Shown here piece after piece: positions 27,839 through 56,898 of a stretch of DNA of 64,000 nucleotides. Location of the stretch: NCBI GenBank assembly GCA_964558375.1, contig CAZLCD010000001.1:209160-273159 (forward strand), given 5' to 3'. The position numbers and the translations under genes are program-made. The first letter of the stretch is position 1. Every line of letters starts with the position of its first letter. The notes under the pieces were generated by a model. That model made no database searches. It worked only from the letters and a program-made list of their open reading frames with translations, and had not been told where the DNA came from. The stretch comes from an uncultured Candidatus Saccharibacteria bacterium. Lineage in GTDB: Bacteria > Patescibacteriota > Minisyncoccia > Phycocordibacterales > PALSA-1337.

Positions 27839-28810
27839 ATGAAAAAAGTTTATATAACAAGACAAATACCAGAGATAGGAATAAAAATGCTTACAGACAA
27901 AGGTTATGAAGTAGATATAAACAAAGAAAACAGACCACTTACAAAAGCAGAACTTATAGGAGCTTTGAAGCAAAAAGAATATGATGCAGTTCTTACCTTA
28001 CTTACCGACAATATAGACGCAGAGGTTATGGATTCTGCACCGACCGTGAAGATCTATGCAAACTTCGCTATCGGTTTCAATAACTTCAATGTAGAAGAAG
28101 CAAAAAAGAGAAATATATATCTGACCAATACTCCAGGCGGTGGAGCAGACAGAGTGGCGGAGCATACCTGGGCTCTCATCCTTGCTCTATCATGTCGTAT
28201 AGTAGAGGGTGACAATTATATGCGAGCCGGCAAATACAATGGCTGGGATCCTATGCTTCTACACGGAACAAAACTCGCAGGGAAGACTCTGGGAATACTA
28301 GGTTCTGGACGCATCGGTGCCGATGTTGCTCATAGAGCAAAGAATGGCTTCGATATGAATGTTGTTTATTATGATGTTAAAAGAAATGAGCAATTGGAAA
28401 AAGATTTCGGAGCAGTCTTTTATAATACTGTTGAAGAAGTGCTAAAGGTTTCAGATGTTGTGTCCATACACGTACCACTTTTAGACTCTACACATCACCT
28501 TATCAATAAAGAAAGATTGGCAATAATGAAACCTTCCGCTTACCTTATAAACACTTCAAGAGGTCCAGTGATCGATGAAGCAGCCTTGGTGGAAGCTTTG
28601 CAAAAGGGAATTATAAGAGGAGCGGGCTTAGATGTATTTGAATTTGAGCCAAAGCTCGTAGATGGTCTAGCCCTACTTCCAAATGTTGTTCTGACTCCAC
28701 ATATCGCATCTGGCACCGAGGAAGCTCGTCATGATATGGCCACTCTTTCTGCACAGAATATTATAAACAGTATAGAGGGTGTTAAGCCTGCCAACTTAGT
28801 ATATAATTAG
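27839..28810 (+). CDS. D-isomer-specific 2-hydroxyacid dehydrogenase (glyoxylate/hydroxypyruvate reductase-like)
   Basis: NAD-binding 'GKTLGILGSGRIGADVAHRA' and catalytic-region 'LTPHIASGTEEAR' are present. Confidence 0.85.
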   Translation: MKKVYITRQIPEIGIKMLTDKGYEVDINKENRPLTKAELIGALKQKEYDAVLTLLTDNIDAEVMDSAPTVKIYANFAIGFNNFNVEEAKKRNIYLTNTPGGGADRVAEHTWALILALSCRIVEGDNYMRAGKYNGWDPMLLHGTKLAGKTLGILGSGRIGADVAHRAKNGFDMNVVYYDVKRNEQLEKDFGAVFYNTVEEVLKVSDVVSIHVPLLDSTHHLINKERLAIMKPSAYLINTSRGPVIDEAALVEALQKGIIRGAGLDVFEFEPKLVDGLALLPNVVLTPHIASGTEEARHDMATLSAQNIINSIEGVKPANLVYN

Positions 28811-28847
28811 TCATATGTCTTCAGGAGTTGAATTTGAGGAGGATAAG

Positions 28848-29057
28848 ATGGGATATGCTGTCAAACGACAGCAGTTTTCCAATTCCCAACCAACCTTTGT
28901 AGGTGGGGTGGGGATAAGTGATTCCGATCCAAAGATGATACAATGGTTGATGAAAAAGGGTATAGTCAAGTCCTCCGGTGGTGGCCAAGTGGTGTTGATC
29001 GTCGTACTCATTTTAAATGTTATTATTACGTATTTTATAATTAAATTTTTATTATGA
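28848..29057 (+). CDS. small hypothetical protein with a C-terminal TM helix (69 aa from the SD-preceded Met; the track ORF starts at 28815)
   Basis: 'gaggaggataagATG' is a strong SD. The C-terminus is 'VVLIVVLILNVIITYFIIKFLL'. Confidence 0.5.
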   Translation: MGYAVKRQQFSNSQPTFVGGVGISDSDPKMIQWLMKKGIVKSSGGGQVVLIVVLILNVIITYFIIKFLL

Positions 29058-29173
29058 AAAAACATTTTGATAAAGCTTCCTCTCACATTCCAGTCTCGAT
29101 GTACTATGTGCTTGCTGCGGCAATGATTGCCAATGTAGTCGTTACTTTTATTATGATAAGATACTTCCTATAA
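29054..29173 (+). CDS. micro-ORF (39 aa) with a single TM helix, coupled to the preceding ORF through an ATGA overlap
   Basis: 'MKKHFDKASSHIPVSMYYVLAAAMIANVVVTFIMIRYFL'. It is too short to appear in the ORF track and ends 8 nt before the pilin gene. Confidence 0.35.
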   Translation: MKKHFDKASSHIPVSMYYVLAAAMIANVVVTFIMIRYFL

Positions 29174-29181
29174 TAAAAACC

Positions 29182-30048
29182 ATGACAAATAATTTTAAAA
29201 AAAGATTTTCTAACCGCGGTTTCACTCTCATCGAGCTTCTCGTAGTTATTTCCATTATCGGTCTTCTTTCAAGTGTTGTGTTGGCGAGTCTAAAAACCGC
29301 AAGAGATAAAGGTACTATCGCAGCAGGTATCCAGTTCAGTGGCTACAACTACCGAGCCTTCGGCGCTGATGCAGCGGGGTATTGGGATTTTAATAATAGT
29401 ACAACGGTAGATACTTCTGGAAATGGTAATACCTTAACTATCGTCGGTGCCCCTACATATGATTCAAACAATACTTATAATAATTCAGGTAGATCTATGT
29501 ACTTCTTACAATCAGCAGGCACAAGGTATCTTTCTATTGCAAGTAATGCAAGTCTATTAAAACCAACAACTCAAGGAACTGTGGGTGCTTGGATAAAGGC
29601 AGGATCAAATGTGGGCGGTAGTTATCGTGGTATTGTCGTGAAGAACTATTCATATGGAATTTTTCTAAACAATGGAATATTATCTACATATAATTATGGT
29701 ACAGCTAATGGTCCTGCAGGCAACAGAAGTTCTGGAGTTACTGTAAATGATGATAAATGGCATCATGTAACAGTTACCTTTAAAGGTAACGTAACTAACG
29801 GATCTCAATTTTATGTTGATGGAAAAGCTGTAGGTGCTCCATTTACTTATAACACAACTGGGGTCGGTACAGATCAAGCTCAAGGAGTAACTATTGCTTC
29901 TGGAGGAACAGATATAAATGGACAAACTCAAAACTTCACTGGCTACATCGACGACGCGTTCATCTACACCTCCTCCCTCCTCGCTTCTGAAATCCATGAC
30001 CTTTATGTACAGGGATTGCCGGAGCACACACTGGTAGATGCTCGATAA
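29182..30048 (+). CDS. type IV pilin / pseudopilin-like protein (prepilin N-terminal cleavage-methylation motif) fused to a LamG lectin domain
   Basis: 'FSNRGFTLIELLVVISIIGLL' is the class III signal. The C-terminal 'IDDAFIYTSSLLASEIHDLYVQG' is the same LamG terminal signature seen in the large surface proteins. Confidence 0.85.
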   Translation: MTNNFKKRFSNRGFTLIELLVVISIIGLLSSVVLASLKTARDKGTIAAGIQFSGYNYRAFGADAAGYWDFNNSTTVDTSGNGNTLTIVGAPTYDSNNTYNNSGRSMYFLQSAGTRYLSIASNASLLKPTTQGTVGAWIKAGSNVGGSYRGIVVKNYSYGIFLNNGILSTYNYGTANGPAGNRSSGVTVNDDKWHHVTVTFKGNVTNGSQFYVDGKAVGAPFTYNTTGVGTDQAQGVTIASGGTDINGQTQNFTGYIDDAFIYTSSLLASEIHDLYVQGLPEHTLVDAR

Positions 30049-30087: not shown

Positions 30088-30753
30088 ATGATTACATTAA
30101 CTGTAGAGCGACGTGACAGCAAAACAAGAGTAGATAATCTTCGAGAAGAAGGCAGAATGCCTGCAGTTTTCTACGGTCCAAAAGAAAAGTCAACACCGAT
30201 CAGTGTTTCAATGACTGAATTTATAAAAGTTTACAAAAAAGCTGGAGAATCTTCAGTTATTATTCTAAAGGACGGTACACATGAGCATGAAGCTCTTATA
30301 CATGAGATGGATGTGCATCCAGTTACAGGAACTCCAAGACATGCAGATTTTTATGTTATAGAAAAGGGTAAAAAAGTTAAAGTTAATATCCCTCTTATCT
30401 TTGAAGGAGTTTCTCCTGCAGTAAAAGACAAAGGCGCTATTCTTATCAAGGTGGCTCGAGAGCTAGAAGTAGAAGCTGCACCAAAGGATCTACCTCATGA
30501 ATTAAAAATAGACATAAGTTCACTTGTAGAATTTTCAAGTACAATCACCGCAAAGGATATAAAGCTTCCAGCCGGAGTAACTCTAGTTTCAGGAGCAGAT
30601 GAAATATTGGCGTCAGTAGCAGAAGCAAAAGAAGAAGCAGAAGAAGTAAAACCTATAGACATGTCAACGATCGAAGTTGCAAAGAAAGGTAAAGAAGCTA
30701 AAGAAGGAGAAGAAGTTGTAGCTGAAGACAAAAAAGAAGAAAAGAAGGCGTAA
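30088..30753 (+). CDS. rplY: 50S ribosomal protein L25 / general stress protein Ctc, with an acidic C-terminal extension
   Basis: 'TLTVERRDSKTRVDNLREEGRMPAVFYGPK' matches L25. Confidence 0.85.
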   Translation: MITLTVERRDSKTRVDNLREEGRMPAVFYGPKEKSTPISVSMTEFIKVYKKAGESSVIILKDGTHEHEALIHEMDVHPVTGTPRHADFYVIEKGKKVKVNIPLIFEGVSPAVKDKGAILIKVARELEVEAAPKDLPHELKIDISSLVEFSSTITAKDIKLPAGVTLVSGADEILASVAEAKEEAEEVKPIDMSTIEVAKKGKEAKEGEEVVAEDKKEEKKA

Positions 30754-30771: not shown

Positions 30772-32157
30772 ATGTATAAAGTTTTTAGGGTTATTATTCC
30801 TGTTTTTATTTTTGTATTTTTTCTTGCATCGCCTTTTTTTGCATCTGCTCAAAGCGGCGAAAACACAGATCAAAGAGAGGCTCGCCTTAGAGCAGAGCTT
30901 GCTCAAGTAGAGAAAGAGCAGGCAGAAACAGAAAAGATTCTAGCGACTACCAAAAATCAAACCGCCTCCATTCAGAGAGATATACTTATTTTATCTACAA
31001 AGATTAAAGCTGCTCAGCTCAATATCAAAGCCAAGACTTTGATCATAGAAACCTTAGGAAAAGATATAAATAAAAAACAAGCCAAGATCGAAGATCTAGA
31101 AAGTCATATAGATCGCGGAGTGGAGACCTTGGCTCAGATCATGAGAAAGACAAACGAGATCGACTCATATTCTTTTGCAGAATTTATTTTGGCTAGAGAA
31201 AATTTATCAGAAGCCTTTGTCGATATAGATAATTTTCAATCTCTGCAATCTTCTTTGAAAGATACCTTCGAAGAGATTCGCGACGACAAAACTCAGACAG
31301 AGACAGAGAAAAGTAGCTTGAGTAAGAGGAAAAATCAAGAGACGGATGCGCGCGCTACTATAGAATCAGAAAAAAGAAATATAGAAGCCAATGAAAAAGA
31401 AAAGCAAAGACTACTTAACCTAAGTAAGGGAAGTGAATATGCCTACGGACAGCTTCTGAAAGAAAAACAACAAAAAGCCGCACAGATCCGTGCCGCACTA
31501 TTTGCTTTGAGGGGTAGTGCATCTATTCCGTTCGGAGATGCTTTAGCCTATGCCAATGCCTCTTCAAAACAGACGGGAGTCAGAGCTGCTTTTCTTCTGG
31601 CGGTTTTGACTCAAGAGTCCAACCTTGGAGCAAATATCGGTCAATGCTTCCTTTCAGATATTTCAAATGGAAATGGTGTGGGTAAAAATACAGGAACTCC
31701 TTTCGAGCAGGTAATGAAAGCTCCTCGAGATACAGAACCTTTTGCAAATATTACAAATAGGCTTGGAAGAGATTGGAAAAGTACACCAGTTTCTTGTCCG
31801 CCAGATCATATATACTATGTAGGAAGAGGCTTCGGTGGCGGTATGGGACCTTCCCAATTTATACCTTCTACATGGGAGCTTTTCAAAGGTACTTTAGGCA
31901 AATTGCTTGGCATATCTGCAGACAGTGTGGATCCATGGAACCCTCAACATGCTTTCATGGCTACAGCTGTTTATATGAGGGATTTGGGTGCTGGAGCGGG
32001 TACATATACAGCAGAGAGGAATTCTGCTTGTAGATACTATTCAGGTGCGCCTTGTACACCAGGCAGAAAGCCCGCAAATGTCTTCTATGGAGACGATGTG
32101 ATGGTTATAGCCGATAGAATACAAAGAACTATGATTGACCCTTTGCAGGGACTATGA
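30772..32157 (+). CDS. secreted coiled-coil protein with a C-terminal lytic-transglycosylase-like (MltB/SLT-type) domain
   Basis: A signal peptide is followed by a long heptad-rich region. 'AVLTQESNLG' is an E-S catalytic-type motif and 'GPSQFIPSTWELF' resembles the 'PMQFMPxTW' motif of the MltB family. Confidence 0.5.
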   Translation: MYKVFRVIIPVFIFVFFLASPFFASAQSGENTDQREARLRAELAQVEKEQAETEKILATTKNQTASIQRDILILSTKIKAAQLNIKAKTLIIETLGKDINKKQAKIEDLESHIDRGVETLAQIMRKTNEIDSYSFAEFILARENLSEAFVDIDNFQSLQSSLKDTFEEIRDDKTQTETEKSSLSKRKNQETDARATIESEKRNIEANEKEKQRLLNLSKGSEYAYGQLLKEKQQKAAQIRAALFALRGSASIPFGDALAYANASSKQTGVRAAFLLAVLTQESNLGANIGQCFLSDISNGNGVGKNTGTPFEQVMKAPRDTEPFANITNRLGRDWKSTPVSCPPDHIYYVGRGFGGGMGPSQFIPSTWELFKGTLGKLLGISADSVDPWNPQHAFMATAVYMRDLGAGAGTYTAERNSACRYYSGAPCTPGRKPANVFYGDDVMVIADRIQRTMIDPLQGL

Positions 32158-34842: not shown

Positions 34843-35253
34843 ATGTCAATTTTCCTAAACACATTCATAATTTCTTTCTACGTGTCACTTCTCGGCATTA
34901 TAAGTATGATCGGTATAAAGTCTATGGAGATAAATTCTGGCAAAAAAAGTTGGGTCTCTAGACTTTCTGACAATACAAATCACCTGGTGCATGATGCCTA
35001 CGATAGGACTAGGACATTTATCTCATATATAAACAGAAAGAGCGCACTTGCACTTGTTCAATGGATTGCGTATCATATTCTCTCATGGGCACGTGAGTTC
35101 TATATTTGGGCTTATCACAAGGCCCATGCTCACGCCCCATCAAAGAAAGTGATAGATATGGTGCGAGGTAAAGGAAAAGAATACAAAGGCGGTGGCGCGT
35201 CCTTTTATTTGAAAAGGATTTCAGAGGAGGAAGAGGAAGAAGTTTTAAAATAA
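34843..35253 (+). CDS. hypothetical membrane protein with an acidic C-terminus
   Basis: An N-terminal TM helix and an 'EEEEEE' tail. No recognisable family. Confidence 0.4.
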   Translation: MSIFLNTFIISFYVSLLGIISMIGIKSMEINSGKKSWVSRLSDNTNHLVHDAYDRTRTFISYINRKSALALVQWIAYHILSWAREFYIWAYHKAHAHAPSKKVIDMVRGKGKEYKGGGASFYLKRISEEEEEEVLK

Positions 35254-35769: not shown

Positions 35770-36900
35770 CTACCTCACCCTCGCATCATAAGTCATCTTT
35801 GTAACCTCTTCTAGTTTCTTATGAAGAATATCAATCTCTGCATTGGTAAGAGTTCTTTCTAGTGTTCTATAAGTAATACGATAAGCATAACTTACATTAC
35901 CTTTGCCAAACTTCTCTTCATTTTCATATTTATCAAGAAGATGCACTTCTTCTACAAGGTCAGGCGCGACATCTCGCACGAGGTCAAAGTAATTGTTCGG
36001 TATAAAGTCATCTTTCACGACAAAAGAAATATCGCGAACAATAGCAGGGAACTTGCTGACATCATTGTACTTATTGCCTAACTTGAGTTGTCTTACAACT
36101 CTAGGATCCTTTGACCATAATAGGCGAATATCTGGCAATTCCATACCGATGATCGCTAGACGTTCCAAACCAAAGCCGAAAGCCCAGCCATTGTAGCCAG
36201 TTACTCCAAAATTCTTAAGAACACTTTTCTTAGGCATACCACCGCCTAGGATTTCTATCCATTGACCGTTGATATCTACTTCTACTTCAAGACTAGGATC
36301 TGTGTAAGGGAAGGTATCTACATTGAAACGATACTTGATGTCTTTACCAAAAATTCCTTGAACGATATGGGTGAGGATATTTTTTAAATCGTCTATGGTC
36401 AATACTTCTTTTGAATCTGGAGTTAGATAAAGCCCGCCCATCTGATGAAAGATGTTCATATGCTTTCGATCAATTTCATCTTTTCTATAGACTTTTCCAT
36501 AACACATTACTCCGAAAGATTCGTTTTTATTAATCCTCTCTTTAATTTCAGGAAGGTTCAAATAGTAATACCACATCACGGTATCATGTGTACGTAATAT
36601 GTTTTTGTCATCAGCATAATACGTGTCGGACTTACTACGAGCCGGATGATTGGCGGCAAAATCGAACATATCAAAACTCACATCAGCCGGAACGATCTCA
36701 GGGATCACTACATCATCAAAGTTTGCAAGGCCAGATAGATTCTTAACCTTCTGTATTATCTCAAATAAAGGACTTTCAGGGGTTCGAGAAAGGTCGGGCA
36801 TTTCAAGGTATTTTATAATACGCTGTGCCTCGGCATCCTTTCTTTCAATCAAGGCTTTTCTGAGAGATTTTTCTGTTTCATTAGGTATAATATATTCCAT
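35770..36900 (-). CDS. pheS: phenylalanine--tRNA ligase alpha subunit
   Basis: 'GWAFGFGLERLAIIGMELPDIRLLW' is the class II motif 3. Motif 2 is in 'FRVDTFPYTDPS..EVEV'. Confidence 0.9.
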   Translation of the reverse strand: MEYIIPNETEKSLRKALIERKDAEAQRIIKYLEMPDLSRTPESPLFEIIQKVKNLSGLANFDDVVIPEIVPADVSFDMFDFAANHPARSKSDTYYADDKNILRTHDTVMWYYYLNLPEIKERINKNESFGVMCYGKVYRKDEIDRKHMNIFHQMGGLYLTPDSKEVLTIDDLKNILTHIVQGIFGKDIKYRFNVDTFPYTDPSLEVEVDINGQWIEILGGGMPKKSVLKNFGVTGYNGWAFGFGLERLAIIGMELPDIRLLWSKDPRVVRQLKLGNKYNDVSKFPAIVRDISFVVKDDFIPNNYFDLVRDVAPDLVEEVHLLDKYENEEKFGKGNVSYAYRITYRTLERTLTNAEIDILHKKLEEVTKMTYDARVR

Positions 36901-39090: not shown

Positions 39091-40353
39091 ATGAAAAAAA
39101 CCTTATTTCTTATTGCTTTTGCGATAGTATTCGTTGCTGTAGTCCCTTCAAAAGTTGAGGCTGGATGTCTTGTTTTCTGCAAGAAAAAGAAAGTTACCGA
39201 AGTAACAAAGATTGTTATAGGTAGTAATGTAAACTCTCCAAATTCTACAGTAGTTAATAACACTGGTACTCCAGTTGTTGTGGCTAATCATACTCCTTCT
39301 TATGACTATGATAATGACTATCGTACTCTAGGTGCTTCTTGTTATTCCAACCCTACAACAGGTGATGTGGGTGATACTATACATTGGAGAGCTTCCGTAT
39401 ATGGTGGAAATGGTGATTATAATGTAACTTGGTCTGGTACAAATGGTCTTGATGGTGATGGTACTAGTATTACAAAAAGATACAATTCTCCAGGTACAAA
39501 GAACGCTTCAATCAGAGTACGTTCTGGCAGTCAGACTCTTACTAGAAACTGTAATAGTGTAATAATCTATGATTATGACAATAGATACAATGATCGTGAT
39601 GACGATTACTACGATTACGACGATGATTATTATAGAAACACACCTCTTCTAGTTTCTTGTTCTGTAAACTCAAATTTTGCTCAAATCGGATCTAGTGTAA
39701 CTTGGCAATCATATGTTTCTGGTGGTAATGGAAGTTATCGCTACACTTGGGATGGTAGTGATTATCTAAGAGGAAGTTCTAGAAATGTGAGTGTCTCTTA
39801 CAATTCTAATGGTGTAAAAACCGCATCTGTCACTGTACGTTCCGATGGTCAGAGTGTAACTCAATCATGTTCAAATTCTATAACTGTAGGTACTGCAAAT
39901 AATCAAAGTAACAACAATTCAGGTCTGCAGACTGCTTGTTATCCAGACAAAACTACTGCTCGTATAGGTACTCCTGTGACATGGTATGCAGAAGCTGTAG
40001 GTGGATCAGGAAACTATACTTATGCATGGTCAGGTTCAGATGCTCTATATGGCAATCAGGTCTCAACTATTAAGACTTATGGAAGTGCTGGTACTAAAGT
40101 TGGTAGTGTAACCATCACCGCTTCAAATGGTCAGTCTACTGTTCAGTCTTGCAGTGGTTCAGTATATATTCAGGGTGACACAGTAGTAAGAGCTGCTCCG
40201 GCTAATACAGACAATAATTCAAACAATGGTGCACTTACCGCATCTTCACTATTCTCACTTTCAAATGTTCCATGGGGATGGGTAGTGGTGCTTGTAATAA
40301 TGTTGCTTGTAGCTACAATTATCTATCTAGTGATTAATAAGAATAAGATATAA
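39091..40353 (+). CDS. cell-surface protein: signal peptide, three ~90-aa Cys-bounded Ig-like repeats ('V.W...V.GG.G.Y.Y.WSGSD'), Asp/Tyr-rich linker, C-terminal TM anchor
   Basis: 'MKKTLFLIAFAIVFVAVVPSKVEA' is the signal peptide. Three repeats are of the form 'C(Y)...G..V.W...V.GGNG.Y..TW.GS......S......G.K.ASVTV.S.GQS.TQSCS'. The C-terminus is 'WGWVVVLVIMLLVATIIYLVINKNKI'. Confidence 0.7.
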   Translation: MKKTLFLIAFAIVFVAVVPSKVEAGCLVFCKKKKVTEVTKIVIGSNVNSPNSTVVNNTGTPVVVANHTPSYDYDNDYRTLGASCYSNPTTGDVGDTIHWRASVYGGNGDYNVTWSGTNGLDGDGTSITKRYNSPGTKNASIRVRSGSQTLTRNCNSVIIYDYDNRYNDRDDDYYDYDDDYYRNTPLLVSCSVNSNFAQIGSSVTWQSYVSGGNGSYRYTWDGSDYLRGSSRNVSVSYNSNGVKTASVTVRSDGQSVTQSCSNSITVGTANNQSNNNSGLQTACYPDKTTARIGTPVTWYAEAVGGSGNYTYAWSGSDALYGNQVSTIKTYGSAGTKVGSVTITASNGQSTVQSCSGSVYIQGDTVVRAAPANTDNNSNNGALTASSLFSLSNVPWGWVVVLVIMLLVATIIYLVINKNKI

Positions 40354-43530: not shown

Positions 43531-44076
43531 ATGAAAAATAACATTATGAATGAAACAGAACCATTGTATATAAAGAAATTACGAGAACATATAGACTATA
43601 AGATAGAGACTCAGGAACCTAAGTATTTTAAGGAGTTTAGAGAGAGCTTAGAAACACATGAGCCAAAGTACTTCAAAGAGTTTAGAGAAAGCTTAGAAAC
43701 ACATGAGCCAAAGTACTTCAAAGAGTTTAGAGAGCACATAGACCATAAGATAGAAACTCATGAACCTAAGTATTTTAAGGAGTTCAAGAAAGAGATAAAG
43801 GATCATATAGATAACAAGATCGATGAAGTTTTAGTATCTACTGCGGGAGAATTTAGAAGAATTGATGAAAAATTTGATAAAATTGATACCGAGTTTGAGG
43901 GAGTTAATAACAGACTAGATAGACTAGAATCTGACGTGGTGGAAGTTAAAGAAAGTATAGGTAAAATAGAAGGTCATATAGGTAGATATGAAGTCAGGGC
44001 TCAAAATATAGAAGCAATTTTATTGGAAGATCATAAACCAAGAATAATCCAGTTGGAAAAAGAAGTTTTTGCCTAA
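43531..44076 (+). CDS. hypothetical coiled-coil protein with four tandem 15-aa repeats ('HEPKYFKEFRESLET')
   Basis: A 45-nt perfect tandem DNA repeat at about 43634-43723, with a heptad-like C-terminus. Confidence 0.6.
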   Translation: MKNNIMNETEPLYIKKLREHIDYKIETQEPKYFKEFRESLETHEPKYFKEFRESLETHEPKYFKEFREHIDHKIETHEPKYFKEFKKEIKDHIDNKIDEVLVSTAGEFRRIDEKFDKIDTEFEGVNNRLDRLESDVVEVKESIGKIEGHIGRYEVRAQNIEAILLEDHKPRIIQLEKEVFA

Positions 44077-47407: not shown

Positions 47408-48232
47408 ATGGAACACAATAAGATTATTATATTTAAAGGTAAAAACGTTCGCAGGACACTCCATAATGATGAATGGTGGTTATCGGTGGTGGATGTTATA
47501 GAAGTTTTAACCGATAGTGTTAAGCCAAGAGACTATTGGTATAGGTTAAAAGATCGTGTAATCGATGAAGATAAAATCGAGTTGTCGACACTTTGTCGAC
47601 AACTGAAATTAGAGTCCACTGATGGTAAATTTTATGAAACTGACTGTGCCAACACTGAAGGCATTTTTCGTATCATTCAATCTATCCCTTCTCCCAAAGC
47701 AGAACCATTTAAAAGATGGCTAGCCAAGGTGGGCTATGAAAGAATGCAGGAAATAGAAAATCCCGAACTAGCCACAAAACGCACTAGAATGTTATATAAG
47801 TTGAAAGGTTATAGCGATGATTGGATAGAAAAAAGAATGAGAGGTATAGCTATTCGCGAAGAACTTACAGATGAATGGAAAGATAGAGGAGCGCAAGAAC
47901 ATAAAGATTATGAAATATTAACTGCAGAAATTTCAAAAGCTACATTTGGAATTACTCCAAAACAATACAAAGAATTAAAGGGATTAAAAAGAGAAAATCT
48001 TCGAGATCATATGAATGATTTTGAACTTATTCTCACTATGCTTGGTGAACGTTCAACCACAGAGATTCATAGAACTGAAGATTCTAAAGGTGTTAAAAAA
48101 TTAAAAGAAGATACAATGATTGGCGGAGAAATAGCTGGTGGCGCACGTAGACAACTTGAAAAGAAATTAAAAAAATCAATAGTTTCAGAAAAGAATTTTA
48201 AAGACCTAAATGCCAAAAGACTCAAAACTTAA
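47408..48232 (+). CDS. DNA-damage-inducible protein D (DinD)-like / Bro-N domain protein
   Basis: 'IIIFKGKNVRRTLHNDEWWLSVVDVIEVL' is a Bro-N-like N-terminus. The C-terminal half ('LYKLKGYSDDWIEKRMRGIAIREELTDEWKDRGAQ...') resembles E. coli DinD. Confidence 0.65.
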   Translation: MEHNKIIIFKGKNVRRTLHNDEWWLSVVDVIEVLTDSVKPRDYWYRLKDRVIDEDKIELSTLCRQLKLESTDGKFYETDCANTEGIFRIIQSIPSPKAEPFKRWLAKVGYERMQEIENPELATKRTRMLYKLKGYSDDWIEKRMRGIAIREELTDEWKDRGAQEHKDYEILTAEISKATFGITPKQYKELKGLKRENLRDHMNDFELILTMLGERSTTEIHRTEDSKGVKKLKEDTMIGGEIAGGARRQLEKKLKKSIVSEKNFKDLNAKRLKT

Positions 48233-49116: not shown

Positions 49117-50016
49117 ATGGCAAATCGACATTTATCAAGATCAGTAGTACTCCAAACACTCTTTGAGTGGGATTTCCGAGGTTGTCATAATGAAAAGGTA
49201 AAAGAATCCATTTCTCGTATATCAGAAGAATTTGCTCCTGGAATGGGAGATTTGTCTTTTATTGAGGAATTAACTTTAAGTGTTTTAGCGAAGAAAGAAG
49301 ATTTAGATAAAATTATTGAAAAAGCTGCACCAGACTGGCCTCTAGACAAGATCTCGGTGATAGATAGAAATATCTTAAGAATGGGATTATACGAACTGTT
49401 GTTTGCTGACCGTGATGAAGTGCCTGCCAAGGTTGCTATCAACGAGGCTATAGAACTAGCCAAAGGTTTTGGCGGAGAGAATAGTGGAAAGTTTATAAAC
49501 GGTGTTCTTGGTTCTGTGTACAAGGAGCTTGGAGAGCCTGGTAAAGAAGGTGCTCCTCCAAAAAAGAAAAAAGTGGATGATATTCCTTATGAGGATATGA
49601 TTGTTCAGAACCTCGGTGGAGCTGTAGTCTATGCTCGGCACGAAGATGAAATCTACATGGCCTTTGTTCACGACATCTTTGGTCACTGGACTCTGTCGAA
49701 AGGTAAGATTCCCGAAGGTGATGTACGAGAAGGTACAGTCGCTAAAGTTAAAGAAGAAATGGGTCTCGATGTCAAAATCAAAGAAGATCTTGGGAATAAT
49801 GAATATATAGCTTCTGATCCAGAAAAAGGAAAGATTCGAAAGCAAGTTCATTATTTTCTAGCTGAATCAAAATTTGATGAGATCAAGCTCGCCGAAAAGC
49901 CAGGCCTCGATGATGCTAAATGGTTTAAGCTTTCTGCTATACTTGAACTTAATTTTTATAATGATATAGTGCCGATTGTAACCAAAGCCATTACCATACT
50001 TAGCCAAGAGAAGTAA
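49117..50016 (+). CDS. NusB-NUDIX fusion: transcription antitermination factor NusB domain followed by a NUDIX hydrolase domain
   Basis: 'VPAKVAINEAIELAKGFGGENSGKFINGVLGSV' is a near-canonical NusB C-terminal block. A Nudix box 'SKGKIPEGDVREGTVAKVKEEMGL' (G-x5-E-x7-REuxEExGu) follows. Confidence 0.85.
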   Translation: MANRHLSRSVVLQTLFEWDFRGCHNEKVKESISRISEEFAPGMGDLSFIEELTLSVLAKKEDLDKIIEKAAPDWPLDKISVIDRNILRMGLYELLFADRDEVPAKVAINEAIELAKGFGGENSGKFINGVLGSVYKELGEPGKEGAPPKKKKVDDIPYEDMIVQNLGGAVVYARHEDEIYMAFVHDIFGHWTLSKGKIPEGDVREGTVAKVKEEMGLDVKIKEDLGNNEYIASDPEKGKIRKQVHYFLAESKFDEIKLAEKPGLDDAKWFKLSAILELNFYNDIVPIVTKAITILSQEK

Positions 50017-53013: not shown

Positions 53014-56000
53014 ATGAATAATTTGATAAAAACGTCTCATGCATTTATCATCATAATTTCTCTTTTTCTTGCAAGCTTAAATATTATATTTTGGTCTTCG
53101 GAACAATTGAGTATTGTTGCTAAAAATATTCCCATAGAATCCATAAAACAAACCGCGGCGGTGGGGGATTTTGATTCTAGTAAAATTCATCATGAGACTT
53201 TCGATAGTGGAGGATCGACTGGTATAGTAGGGCAAGCTAAGGTATTTGCTTCACTTACAGATAAAGTAAACACTCCAATAAATACCTCTACTCTTACCGG
53301 TGGCTTCACTATTTCTTTTTGGGCGAATCCTACAGCTCTAGCTTTTAATAAGTTTGCATATTCTGCAAGTGATCAGGGCGCAGACCGATTTTATTTTAGA
53401 CAAGATACAGGAACTAGTGCTGTAGCTGGACTCGGTAGTTGGAATCCCGCTATCAGTTCTGCTTTTTCTACAGATAAGTGGACTCACTATGTCATTACTT
53501 TAGATGGCACTACAGGTAAGATTTACAAAAATAATTCAGTCGTAGCTTCCAATTCAAATATTACCGTCGCTCTACCAAACTCTGTTATTGCTATAGGTGC
53601 AAGTAAAGATTCCACAGCAAATACTTTTTTCACAGGTTCTTTAGATGATTTCCGTATCTACAATCGAGCTCTTACTGTAACTGAAATAGATGATCTATAT
53701 ATACTTGGTGGAGGTGCAGTTGCAGAAGTAGATACCACCCCTCCCTCTGTACCTGCAAATGTTACAGCTACAGCAATTTCTTCATCTCGGATAGATCTTT
53801 CATGGTCTGCATCTACCGGTGGAGCCACAGGGTATCGTGTCTATAAAGATGGAAGTCAGATAACTACAACTGCTAATACCTCATATTCCAATACAGGACT
53901 TACTCCAGCTACTTCGTATTCATATACAGTCGCTTCATATGATGACGATTCAAATGTATCAGCTCAAAGCTCTTCTGTTTCTGCAAGCACACCTGCTGGG
54001 TCTGGTTCACCGATAGATGGACAATGTTCAACAACTTTAAATACATGCACAACCCCAACCCCCGCAACAAACATAAGAGCAGACGCTAATAATAATCTTT
54101 GGACTTGTCCTGGAACAAATAATGGCAATCCAGCATCTTGTTCATCACCTATTACAACTGGTGGCAGACAGCCTACAGTTTCTGGTAACGAGGTAACTGC
54201 ATATTCTTGCGAACAGGTAGATGTGCAGGCGGCTTTGAATATCGCTCAGACAGGGAATATTGTAAATATTCCAGCTGGAACATGTACTTGGACAAGTACT
54301 TTTAATTTCAATAAAGCAGTTACTCTAAAGGGGGCAGGGGTAGATCAAACAACGCTTATAAATGGTGTATCACACACTGGAATTTCTAGTTGTGGTGGAT
54401 GTACAAGACCACAGATTATTATCATGAGTTCAAGTAATTCTGGGTTAACTAGAATTACAAATATGACTATCGATGGTGGTTCGGGAACTATAGATGGACA
54501 AAATAATGGTTTTTTTCTAGTCTACGGAAGTTCTAAAAATTGGAGAATAGATCATATGCGTTTTCGCGTGACTCGTACTTCTGCTATAACCGCGTATGCT
54601 CCGGGCGGTCTCATAGACAATAATCGTTTTGATATTATTGGCTGGTATGTGAGTATCTATGGTAAAAATGGAGGAGGAGAAAATGGTGATCCTGTATGGG
54701 CTCAGGATACTGAACTCGGTACAGATAATGCCTTATATATAGAAGATAATACATTCTATTCTTCCACGCCAAGTCTCGGTCTTGATGGATGGATGGGACA
54801 ACGTGTAGTTGTAAGGTTTAATAATTTTAATAATTCCCGAGCAGGTAATCATGGAACAGAGAGCGGTAATCGTCTACGAGGTTCTAGGAGTTACGAAATA
54901 TATAATAATACTTTCAACAAAACTAATGGTGATAATTATAGCGATGCTGTAGGTATTCGTGGTGGTGTAGGGGTCGTATTTAATAATACCTTGTCAGGAT
55001 CTTTTACAATGGTTGGTTCTATGCACAACTATCGTGATCTACACCCATATTCACCTTGGGGTCAATGTGATGGAACGAGTCCTTTCGATTTAAATGATCT
55101 AGAAGATGATAATTCTACCCTAAGAGTTTATGATACAGGGACTTCTGATACAAATTCAGTATATTCTAATAATAATATTACACTTACAGATTCAGATAAA
55201 TCATGGACTGCTGGTCAATGGATTGGTTATAGTATTTGGAATACAACAAAAAATCTAAAAAGTCCCATAACATCCAATACAGCCACAACGATAACTAGTC
55301 CCACAGATAACAACAATAATAGCGCGCCATTATCTTGGAGTAATGGTGATAGTTTCAAAATAATACGCGCATCTATGTGTATTGATCAAGTCGGTAGAGG
55401 TAAGGGAGTTTTGATTTCTGGTGGACAAAGTAATCCAACCCCAAGAGCTTGGACACAACAAGAATTAGATCCAACATATATCTGGAATAATACTTTAAAT
55501 GGATCTTATCGTGCTATAGGTGATACATCGGTTCATATTGTAGAAGGTAGAGATTATTATAATAACACTTGTAAGCCCGGGTATAGTCCATACACGTATC
55601 CCCACCCCCTTACAGGACTCTCACCTCAAACTGTACCCTTGAATTGTAATGGTGGTACACCAGCGCAAACCTATAATCTCTCTGTTTCAAAACAGGGAAC
55701 TGGTTCAGGTACTGTGTCTGGAGGTTCTATTTCTTGCGGAAGTATTTGTTCAATGACAGGTTCCGGAAATATCTTACTCCTAGCTACTCCAAGCAACGGC
55801 TCAGCATTTACTGGTTGGTCAGGCGCTTGTACTGGTTCTAGTAGTATTTGTTCAGTATCTCTTTCTTCTAACCAAACTGTTACTGCAACCTTTGGTCCAG
55901 GAACTCTAGTCGGCACCCCCGCTCAATGTTCCACCACTCTAAACTCCTGTTCAACTGGTACCTTAAGATCTGGTAGTCAAAGTAGCAATTCTACCCACAA

Positions 56001-56898
56001 CCTCTGGACCTGTGATGGTCTAAATGGAGGAGCTCAAGCTTCTTGTTCTGTTCTTAAAACACTTCCTCCTACACCTGGTCAATGTTCTACTACCCTAAAC
56101 CTTTGTACTTCTGGAAATCCAGAAGGTATAACTGCCAACACTACTCATAATATATGGACTTGTGGTGGTACAAACGGTGGTGAAGCTATCTCTTGCTCAA
56201 AACTCATATCCAACATAGACCTAACTCCAACCACCAACTTGGTTACGGTAAACAAAACAGGATCAGGATCAGGTACGGTTACGGGTACAGGTATCTCTTG
56301 TGGATCTGACTGTACTCATGTATTACCTATAAACACCGCTATTACCCTCACAGCTACTCCAAACAGTGGTTATGTGTTCAGTAGTTGGTCTGGAGGATAT
56401 TGTTCTGGTAGTAATAATACTTGTACTATTACTCCTACTACAGACGCTACTGTTATAGCAAGGTTTAGTATTATTCCTACCGCAATAAATGGTCTATGTT
56501 CCACTACTCTAAACTCTTGTACTACTGGTAGATTTTCTGAAAGATCAGATAACACGACTCACTCTCTCTGGTCATGCCAAGGTACAAATGGAGGAACTAA
56601 TGTAGATTGTTCTAGTGTAAAACCTGCGGTACCACCTCCTGTTTATAATCCTCCAGTTCAACCTGTAAACTATACTCCTACTCCTTATGTCTATAAGAAA
56701 CCAGTAACTACTCCAAAGTTAATTCAACCAACCCCAGATCTCCCACCCTCCCCATCCTTCGAACCTCTAGACTTCATACCCACCGACTATATAAAGATAT
56801 TGCTCAATCTTACCAAAGATTTGGTTCTTAATTTTGTACAGAGAATTACAAGAGGTGCTCAGAAAGTGATAGAGGAGATAAAAATGCTAAGTAGCTAA
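53014..56898 (+). CDS. giant secreted multi-domain protein of the LamG family: signal, LamG, FN3, Cys module, beta-helix-like core, InlB-B-repeat, Cys module x2, InlB-B-repeat, Cys module, diverged family C-terminal tail
   Basis: LamG ends 'LDDFRIYNRALTVTEIDDLYILG'. FN3 is 'PPSVPANVTATAISSSRIDLSWSAS..ATGYRVYKDG'. There are four 'CSTTLN.C...(8-12)..TH.[LI]W[TS]C.G.NGG....C[S]' modules and two 'GSG.V.G..ISCGS.C...........L.ATP..G..F..WSG.C.........VTA.F' modules. The tail is '...YVYKKP...PDLPPSPSFEPLDFIPTDYIKILLNL...'. Confidence 0.85.
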   Translation: MNNLIKTSHAFIIIISLFLASLNIIFWSSEQLSIVAKNIPIESIKQTAAVGDFDSSKIHHETFDSGGSTGIVGQAKVFASLTDKVNTPINTSTLTGGFTISFWANPTALAFNKFAYSASDQGADRFYFRQDTGTSAVAGLGSWNPAISSAFSTDKWTHYVITLDGTTGKIYKNNSVVASNSNITVALPNSVIAIGASKDSTANTFFTGSLDDFRIYNRALTVTEIDDLYILGGGAVAEVDTTPPSVPANVTATAISSSRIDLSWSASTGGATGYRVYKDGSQITTTANTSYSNTGLTPATSYSYTVASYDDDSNVSAQSSSVSASTPAGSGSPIDGQCSTTLNTCTTPTPATNIRADANNNLWTCPGTNNGNPASCSSPITTGGRQPTVSGNEVTAYSCEQVDVQAALNIAQTGNIVNIPAGTCTWTSTFNFNKAVTLKGAGVDQTTLINGVSHTGISSCGGCTRPQIIIMSSSNSGLTRITNMTIDGGSGTIDGQNNGFFLVYGSSKNWRIDHMRFRVTRTSAITAYAPGGLIDNNRFDIIGWYVSIYGKNGGGENGDPVWAQDTELGTDNALYIEDNTFYSSTPSLGLDGWMGQRVVVRFNNFNNSRAGNHGTESGNRLRGSRSYEIYNNTFNKTNGDNYSDAVGIRGGVGVVFNNTLSGSFTMVGSMHNYRDLHPYSPWGQCDGTSPFDLNDLEDDNSTLRVYDTGTSDTNSVYSNNNITLTDSDKSWTAGQWIGYSIWNTTKNLKSPITSNTATTITSPTDNNNNSAPLSWSNGDSFKIIRASMCIDQVGRGKGVLISGGQSNPTPRAWTQQELDPTYIWNNTLNGSYRAIGDTSVHIVEGRDYYNNTCKPGYSPYTYPHPLTGLSPQTVPLNCNGGTPAQTYNLSVSKQGTGSGTVSGGSISCGSICSMTGSGNILLLATPSNGSAFTGWSGACTGSSSICSVSLSSNQTVTATFGPGTLVGTPAQCSTTLNSCSTGTLRSGSQSSNSTHNLWTCDGLNGGAQASCSVLKTLPPTPGQCSTTLNLCTSGNPEGITANTTHNIWTCGGTNGGEAISCSKLISNIDLTPTTNLVTVNKTGSGSGTVTGTGISCGSDCTHVLPINTAITLTATPNSGYVFSSWSGGYCSGSNNTCTITPTTDATVIARFSIIPTAINGLCSTTLNSCTTGRFSERSDNTTHSLWSCQGTNGGTNVDCSSVKPAVPPPVYNPPVQPVNYTPTPYVYKKPVTTPKLIQPTPDLPPSPSFEPLDFIPTDYIKILLNLTKDLVLNFVQRITRGAQKVIEEIKMLSS

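Follow-up and report, generated by a model that had tools for sequence, protein, structure and literature searches.

The ultra-small Patescibacteria depend on hosts, and type IV pili are regarded as their chief means of locating these hosts and holding on to them; the pili of these bacteria are only beginning to be dissected, so far in cultivated Saccharibacteria only. The question addressed here is what two very small genes, referred to as ORF-A and ORF-B (ORF, open reading frame), are doing immediately ahead of a type IV prepilin gene with a LamG domain. The three genes lie in a 64,000-nucleotide stretch of contig CAZLCD010000001.1, the whole of which is called the window in this text, a compact Patescibacteria genome segment of about 39% GC with long same-strand gene arrays. 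On the sequence evidence, Patescibacteria of the Paceibacteria/Parcubacteria type conserve this locus as a module of three genes, and the products of its two micro-genes, A and B, form an undescribed pair, restricted to Patescibacteria as judged from their homologues, that usually adjoins a pilin gene. The module consists of three plus-strand ORFs placed between a 2-hydroxyacid dehydrogenase gene (end 28810) and rplY, the gene for L25 (start 30088):

28815 to 29057, plus strand: ORF-A, 80 amino acids, predicted tail-anchored membrane protein (69 amino acids if read from 28848)
29054 to 29173, plus strand: ORF-B, 39 amino acids, predicted tail-anchored mini-protein
29182 to 30048, plus strand: prepilin with a LamG head, 288 amino acids, with its leader (M1-G13) at 29182 to 29220

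The stop codon of ORF-A and the start codon of ORF-B share the ATGA at 29054-29057, and the end of ORF-B at 29173 is separated from the pilin ATG at 29182 by a gap of 8 nucleotides.

The micro-genes A and B

It is the conservation of A and B, and not their tight spacing, that exceeds chance. A word-index search with the 69-residue version of ORF-A returned one match, a 91%-identical neighbour, which reflects the limited sensitivity of such a search and not an absence of conservation. A full HMMER (phmmer) scan retrieved 73 representatives of family A (clusters at 50% identity), which are 65-111 amino acids long and all end at a C-terminal transmembrane helix, and a profile search enlarged the family to at least 183 clusters at 90% identity, all annotated as hypothetical, none with a Pfam domain and, where a source is named, all from Patescibacteria. 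Searches at the DNA level for related loci, cited below by their L numbers, gave 5 genome loci and 22 metagenome loci, and one query alignment comprised 10 closer sequences.

Members of family A share a common order of parts, namely an acidic N-terminal peptide, a G/S/P/Q-rich linker of highly variable length, a juxtamembrane motif of the form (N)EPKMVQWLM[KR][KH]GI[VA]KS, and a transmembrane helix with a nearly invariant mid-membrane Asn (NIIIT) and a C-terminus ending in ...IKYFL. Nearly all of them start with MSxGVEF[ED][ED]D, a feature that holds in relatives down to about 35% identity. In ORF-A itself the N-terminus reads MSSGVEFEEDK and is followed by a low-complexity linker, the juxtamembrane motif is PKMIQWLMKKGIVKS, and the C-terminal helix carries Asn68 in mid-membrane position (NVIIT) and terminates in ...IKFLL; AlphaFold2 (AF2) predicts disorder for residues 12-39, a short helix for 40-48 and a further helix for 54-79. 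Because this N-terminus is conserved and Met12, the residue encoded at 28848, is not (relatives have I, L, F or S in its place), the comparison indicates that ORF-A almost certainly starts at 28815 and that 28848 is internal. The GAGGAGG ahead of 28848, an apparent ribosome-binding site, corresponds to the codons of the conserved E-E-D, and L005 has gaagaagac there instead.

ORF-B is laid out as MK..IPxS(M/I)Y, followed by a transmembrane helix with an invariant Asn27 and the ending ..RYFL, and family B as a whole (34-43 amino acids) reads MK..[LI]PxS[IV]Y, transmembrane helix and a terminus of the type ..KYFL; among 21 aligned B proteins S15 and N27 are invariant and P13 is conserved in at least 90%. 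When the two families were compared with hhalign, B aligned to A residues 46-80 with a probability of 96.9% and an E value of 1.7e-10, figures that similarity and composition of transmembrane segments tend to inflate in profile-profile comparisons. On this alignment, ORF-B is a paralogue of A, a duplicate of its C-terminal module of basic stretch and transmembrane helix. For both proteins an N-in tail anchor is predicted from the Lys residues ahead of the helix and the near absence of sequence behind it.

The close relatives L001 (about 93% nucleotide identity) and L003 (about 96%) have A, B and pilin in the same order. Relative to L001, ORF-B differs by 11 synonymous and 2 non-synonymous changes and one codon deletion, with a ratio of non-synonymous to synonymous substitution rates (dN/dS) of 0.03, while ORF-A differs by 7 synonymous and 5 non-synonymous changes (dN/dS 0.18). 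Taken together, these comparative data show ORF-A and ORF-B to be real genes under purifying selection, encoding predicted tail-anchored membrane proteins. Within the window they are the only ORFs of their kind, according to a six-frame regular-expression search.

Neither protein has a Pfam or NCBIfam match. When 48 family members were compared with curated families, scattered weak matches to unrelated families were all that appeared (E values of at least 0.005), and these are read as spurious similarity of transmembrane or low-complexity segments; in PHROGs, ORF-A had one integrase match at 0.016 and ORF-B none. A phage, holin or toxin-antitoxin reading of the pair is thus unsupported by PHROGs, and equally so by gene context. 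The assignment of A and B to Flp/Tad-type pilins was also rejected, the G/XXXXE[YF] motif not being seen in the alignments and the helix coming last in the chain (behind KGIVKS in A, behind LPxS in B); a Flp1_like match was obtained for 1 of the 48 members, at an E value of 0.39.

A first-pass annotation of this DNA, made from the letters alone, had described three ORFs with an ATGA overlap and an 8-nucleotide gap, and these are present as described. Of the lengths it gave for the two micro-ORFs, 69 and 39 amino acids, that of ORF-B stands and that of ORF-A gives way to 80, and its term single-transmembrane ORFs understates what appear to be tail-anchored paralogues with a conserved set of cytoplasmic motifs. 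It had further allowed that the micro-ORFs might be random and conserved in no relative, an objection that fails, as homologues beside pilin genes were found in related genomes. Its suggestion of a co-translated trio is supported by comparative genomics, through the conserved ATGA overlap and the usual adjacency of the pilin described below.

Linkage to pilin genes and a possible role

A and B overlap by ATGA in 17 of the 23 loci that have a B gene (16 of the 21 tabulated, together with L034, which has the overlap, and L032, which does not). Among 26 distinct distant loci, a B gene is present in 20, and a prepilin gene lies within about 100 nucleotides of B (or A) in 19; with two more loci in which the prepilin comes just after L25, the total is 21 of 26. 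In most relatives the gap to the prepilin gene is only a few nucleotides. In one locus the pilin following A-B is split into ORFs of 36 and 258 amino acids (L010, 4376-5250), either by a frameshift, which would make it a pseudogene, or by an assembly error.

Given this arrangement, it seems somewhat probable that A and B work with the pilin, and the adjacent pilin would be their most likely client because of gene linkage. A more specific proposal is put forward tentatively, as a possibility suggested by the sequences: A and B would be a Patescibacteria-specific type IV pilus accessory, a tail-anchored heterodimer that is held together by the mid-membrane Asn and escorts or gates the alpha-1N segment of the pilin with its Glu5, the invariant MSxGVEFEED peptide of A, on a disordered tether, coupling that pilin to a cytoplasmic component of the machine. 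Termination and reinitiation at the ATGA would yield A and B in fixed proportion, and both would be oriented with the N-terminus in the cytoplasm, as is prepilin alpha-1N. Helix-helix association is classically driven by conserved polar Asn residues in membrane helices, and these two proteins could pair in the cytoplasmic membrane as a heterodimer through their Asn-containing helices, an arrangement proposed because the Asn occurs in paralogous helices and because ATGA coupling would provide a fixed stoichiometry. The invariant N-terminal peptide of A, carried on a flexible, disordered linker, may then recruit a cytoplasmic partner, and the pair would dock, stabilise or gate the adjacent pilin while it is still in the membrane, ahead of its processing by PilD and its assembly. 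The pilin itself would be cleaved at G13/F14 and built into a filament by a type IV pilus machine whose genes lie elsewhere, and it would display its LamG domain outside the cell as an adhesin for glycans or host surfaces.

The distribution of the mid-membrane Asn gives a weak hint that this residue is tied to A-B pairing. Two A-like proteins without a partner B gene, those of L009 (4944-5813) and L025 (3929-4120), are also without the Asn; the B-less A-like proteins of L023 and L028 keep it.

Several observations weigh against a functional link between the pair and the pilin, and they give substance to an alternative, considered possible but doubtful, in which the small membrane proteins A and B have housekeeping roles (for example linked to envelope, division or translation) and none in pili, and stand beside the pilin by conserved gene order only. 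Gene neighbourhood is the sole basis on which A and B are connected with the pilin; homology of A or B to known type IV pilus components was not detectable, and no gene of the pilus machinery, pilB, pilC and pilD included, is found within the 64-kb window. Genes are closely spaced throughout this genome (the intergenic gaps among the four upstream genes are 7, 16 and 4 nucleotides), and the spacing of the trio is nothing special. In many loci a whole block keeps its order, running from FBA/2-Hacid_dh through A, B, pilin, L25, SLT, (L31) and RF to S2, so that much of the adjacency of A/B and pilin could be inherited order. Moreover, L25 directly follows B in L014 and L031 and thereby separates it from a LamG pilin located after L25, and 5 of the 26 distant loci have no pilin next to A. 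These are L012, where another gene follows A on a short contig, L013, itself a short contig, L025, where an A-like gene sits in the order L25, SLT, A-like, RF, S2 with the pilin absent, and L026 and L033, in both of which the usual place of the pilin is taken by an opposite-strand NMO-like gene. The NMO-like gene, of the nitronate monooxygenase family, lies directly after A or A-B in both of these unrelated loci (L026, 4601-6127, minus strand; L033, 6377-7813, minus strand).

On the other hand, inheritance of gene order does not readily account for three further observations. The strongest evidence against it comes from L009, in which an A-like gene and a pilin occur together in a wholly different neighbourhood, as an isolated pair that has opposite-strand tRNA/EngB-like GTPase genes on one side and RbfA/IF-2 genes on the other; the rest of the block (FBA to L25) is missing there. 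Where B is absent in L023 and L028, the end of A overlaps the start codon of the pilin directly, by 4 nucleotides (ATGA) and 11 nucleotides, respectively. Finally, the slot after A/B is occupied by a LamG-type pilin in some lineages and by a small classical pilin (162-211 amino acids) in others, and the maintenance of the pilin position though the head changes fully argues for selection on the arrangement. Cooperation of A and B with the pilin therefore remains the favoured reading, at the modest strength given above. What the locus offers in any case is a conserved, translationally coupled pair of mini membrane proteins that is named in no database and usually found beside a pilin; should A and B handle pilins, they would represent a lineage-specific addition to an otherwise universal machine.

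The LamG pilin and its variable core

By its sequence, the product of 29182-30048 is a genuine prepilin that has a canonical class III signal peptide and a LamG head. Its leader, MTNNFKKRFSNRG, is short (13 amino acids), hydrophilic and basic, and Gly13 (-1) precedes Phe14 (+1); the sequence after the cleavage site is FTLIELLVVISIIGLLSSVVLASL, the mature protein starting with F14-T-L-I-E18, with Glu at +5. F14, T15, L16 and E18 are invariant across 68 pilin homologues. The N-terminus is matched by Pfam PF07963 (N_methyl) with 33.0 bits (cut-off 21.2) and by TIGR02532 with 33.9 bits (cut-off 16.3), while residues 113-272 are matched by PF13385 (Laminin_G_3) with 62.3 bits (cut-off 27.6; E 7.5e-17), and PF02210 reaches 24.7 bits (cut-off 22.9). 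Within the gene, two features can be delimited:

29371 to 29997, plus strand: LamG domain, a concanavalin-A-like beta-sandwich, pilin residues ~64-272
29388 to 29972, plus strand: putative allelic cassette, the LamG core that appears to be swapped between near-identical strains

Membership in known pseudopilin and fimbrial families was rejected. The profiles of GspH (34.9 against a cut-off of 80) and GspG (27.3 against 88.85) match residues 12-45 only, which is the shared alpha-1N, and TafC gave 32.1 bits against a cut-off of 410.

A single AF2 model, built with the 68 homologues, has a mean predicted local distance difference test score (pLDDT) of 85.7 and a predicted template modelling score (pTM) of 0.82. 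In it a 48-residue alpha-1 helix (16-63) continues directly into the beta-sandwich, whose strands begin at residue 64, and neither a separate pilin beta-sheet module nor a linker is evident; the LamG domain thus appears, in the model, to take the place of the pilin head instead of hanging on a linker. The best Foldseek matches are the Hc-N domain of clostridial neurotoxins, NTNH jelly-rolls and domain 4 of the arabinanase AbnA (probability 1.0, template modelling score 0.50-0.56). A profile search of the PDB linked the N-terminus to alpha-1N of PilA proteins and geopilin, and the LamG part to an S-layer-domain protein (4qvs), neurexin LNS domains and pentraxins (best E value to 3e-21). Sugar binding is a candidate function of the LamG domain, whose fold family also includes non-lectins.

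The pilin itself is nothing new. Its homologues in the database number 3,185 proteins at E values of up to 1e-3, and the pilin-LamG architecture, with more than 3,000 proteins, is ordinary in Patescibacteria and already published as a concept. The top 120 homologues are all 264-346 amino acids long; 118 of them carry both PF07963 and PF13385, the remaining two being without a PF07963 call, and the sources named among these 120 are Patescibacteria, Paceibacterota, Parcubacteria and Taylorbacteria.

The prepilin site with Glu at +5 and the LamG domain, both proposed in the first-pass annotation, are thus borne out by the sequence and by profile scores above cut-off, and its reservation that the invariant Glu5 might be lacking falls away. 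The terminal signature that it noted in both the pilin and the giant surface proteins of the window is the generic C-terminal PF13385 motif G.[IL]DD.[RF][IV]Y...L...EI..LY. The LamG domains of the pilin and of the giant proteins are only about 24-32% identical, and the link between them is, at sequence level, one of membership in the same Pfam family, with no specific signature. It had also proposed structure prediction as a means to place LamG at the tip of a pilus or in its shaft; the AF2 model gives LamG in place of the head and does not separate the two.

In this regard, the LamG pilin might be a major, shaft-forming subunit, the filament then being coated along its full length with lectin-like domains, an option that we hold to be rather unlikely. 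It would agree with the AF2 model, where the sandwich directly replaces the head after alpha-1, and with the absence of a second prepilin elsewhere in the 64-kb window. The same gene slot in relatives holds small classical pilins with an ...ELY..D.G.YP pattern, which we regard as characteristic of major pilins and of GspG, and archaeal pilins do build shafts from an alpha-helix plus beta-sandwich layout. Against this stands the fact that two LamG pilin paralogues often occur on one contig, as would suit an adhesin repertoire (the pairs P0018/P0046, P0019/P0088 and P0039/P0067, read as co-located because the longest contigs of the two members are equal in length). Likewise, characterised modular pilins with bulky modules are of low abundance and have been modelled at the tip (PMC8179133, PMC9934059, PMC11623550). 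A lectin-tipped pilus is considered plausible by analogy with PilC of S. sanguinis (PMC9934059) and PilX1 of Saccharibacteria (PMC11623550).

Comparison with L003 reveals how variable the LamG core is. Between the two strains, nucleotide identity is 96-100% in the flanks and in the micro-ORFs and falls to 20-80%, mostly below 65%, in the core (~29388-29972, corresponding to 4200-4800 of L003); the pilin remains conserved in its alpha-1 region and its C-terminal tail. Over the core dS is about 2.0 (saturated) and dN 0.45, giving a dN/dS of 0.23, and neighbouring segments and genes have dS values of 0.03-0.37. Positive selection by point mutation was rejected as an explanation on account of the saturated dS and the low dN/dS, which together point to a divergent allele brought in by recombination. 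Gene conversion from the giant LamG genes was rejected as well, as none of the other LamG genes in the window could serve as a donor. The pattern indicates an allelic cassette, with the LamG core swapped between strains via recombination, as would be expected for an exposed, specificity-determining surface, and such replacement between near-identical strains points to strain-level variation in the binding target of the pilus. The cassette and the A/B pair may thus be entry points for the study of host specificity in uncultivated Paceibacteria.

The same strain comparisons bear on the weakest of the alternatives, that the micro-ORFs are chance ORFs or that their region acts as an RNA leader of the pilin gene, which is effectively refuted by the comparative data and can be given hardly any credence: the stretch 28791-29150 is 100% identical to L003 amid flanks of about 96%, dS of ORF-A against L001 is as low as 0.15, and direct reading of the sequence finds no obvious Shine-Dalgarno at ORF-A, ORF-B or the pilin gene, but protein conservation reaches down to about 30-40% identity over more than 180 clusters with constraints on motifs and length, the changes in ORF-B are overwhelmingly synonymous, dS varies by region from 0.15 to 0.7 over all neighbouring genes, consistent with strain mosaicism, and the region has no Rfam match and an unremarkable fold z-score of -1.16. 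Promoter and terminator scans of the sequence gave counts no higher than shuffled controls and are hence uninformative.

Surroundings of the module and comparison with known systems

Downstream of the module, two neighbours recur in related loci:

30088 to 30753, plus strand: ribosomal protein L25/Ctc (identified by Pfam), the next gene after the pilin in most related loci
30772 to 32157, plus strand: putative secreted protein with a long coiled coil and a C-terminal MltB/SLT_2-like lytic transglycosylase region, 461 amino acids, kept after L25

The latter protein has no significant Pfam match of its own, as is also the case for the ORFs at 34843-35253 and 43531-44076; it is 49% identical to a protein of L034 that carries PF13406. 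The L034 homologue shows weak NCBIfam matches to MltB_2/MltB, all below cut-off, and the window protein has none. A probable MltB-like lytic transglycosylase two genes downstream of the pilin fits an envelope theme and proves nothing.

The window as a whole contains housekeeping genes, a PKD-domain protein, a BRO-N-domain protein and several giant LVIVD/LamG surface proteins, and the remaining Pfam-matched ORFs of at least 120 amino acids fall into these same classes (PKD-domain, 39091-40353; BRO-N-domain, 47408-48232). Five consecutive giant surface proteins of 723-2,614 amino acids are encoded at 588-22762 (plus strand), the first with LVIVD repeats and a Peptidase_S74 chaperone domain and the other four with Laminin_G_3 together with fn3 or InlB-B-repeat domains; a sixth LamG/fn3 protein, of 1,294 amino acids, is located at 53014-56898 (plus strand). 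At 35770-36900 (minus strand) lies the gene for a single-chain PheRS-like protein of 376 amino acids, with a tRNA-synt_2d class II core and an FDX-ACB domain, a layout that resembles the monomeric mitochondrial enzyme, unlike the usual bacterial alpha2beta2 form, and a separate beta subunit is not apparent elsewhere in the window. At 49117-50016 (plus strand) one ORF of 299 amino acids encodes NusB fused to a NUDIX hydrolase domain.

Among known systems, the haloarchaeal Tat-fimbria protein TafC (NF052521; PMC11821415) resembles the window pilin at domain level only: residues 126-276 of the pilin match profile positions 212-361, the LamG-like region, whereas TafC is exported via Tat and is without a class III signal peptide. 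Closer counterparts are found among the modular pilins catalogued by Raynaud et al. 2021, which include the architecture IPR012902 plus PF13385 (PMC8179133), the one seen here with N_methyl and PF13385 in a single protein of 288 amino acids. For PilC of S. sanguinis, the concanavalin-A-like module is a proven lectin (PMC9934059), and both this protein and the window pilin have a class III signal peptide, alpha-1N and then a concanavalin-A-like/LamG domain. PilC differs in that it is a 52.8-kDa protein with a short pilin moiety, an immunoglobulin-like module and the lectin, the window pilin passing directly from alpha-1 into LamG in the AF2 model; it is stabilised by the minor pilin PilA, and A/B-like genes are not described there.

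In Patescibacteria, the lectin-like minor pilins PilX1 and PilX2 of TM7x have been implicated in host binding (PMC11623550). PilX1, likewise a Patescibacteria pilin, has a beta-jelly-roll, L-type-lectin-like C-terminal domain that has been proposed to bind host cell-wall glycans in episymbiosis. The genes for PilX1 and PilX2 belong to loci of pilus machinery or of several pilins, and the proteins carry an extra domain on a lollipop pilin head; unlike them, the window pilin is a lone pilin in a housekeeping block, preceded by A/B and known from genes alone.

For A and B themselves, the nearest parallel is one of functional analogy only, with PilN/PilO and GspL/GspM, which are also small single-pass paralogous pairs in the membrane of the prepilin. 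PilN recruits PilM by means of a short conserved peptide at its cytoplasmic N-terminus. A and B have no sequence similarity to PilN, PilO or GspM, and they have almost no extracytoplasmic part, whereas the others have sizeable periplasmic domains. TM7x encodes PilM, PilN and PilO (PMC11623550), and since Patescibacteria such as TM7x already possess these proteins, A and B are not obvious replacements for them. If the pair does escort pilins in the manner proposed, it would constitute a new class of pilin-handling factor, next to these established components, in bacteria whose pili mediate episymbiosis.

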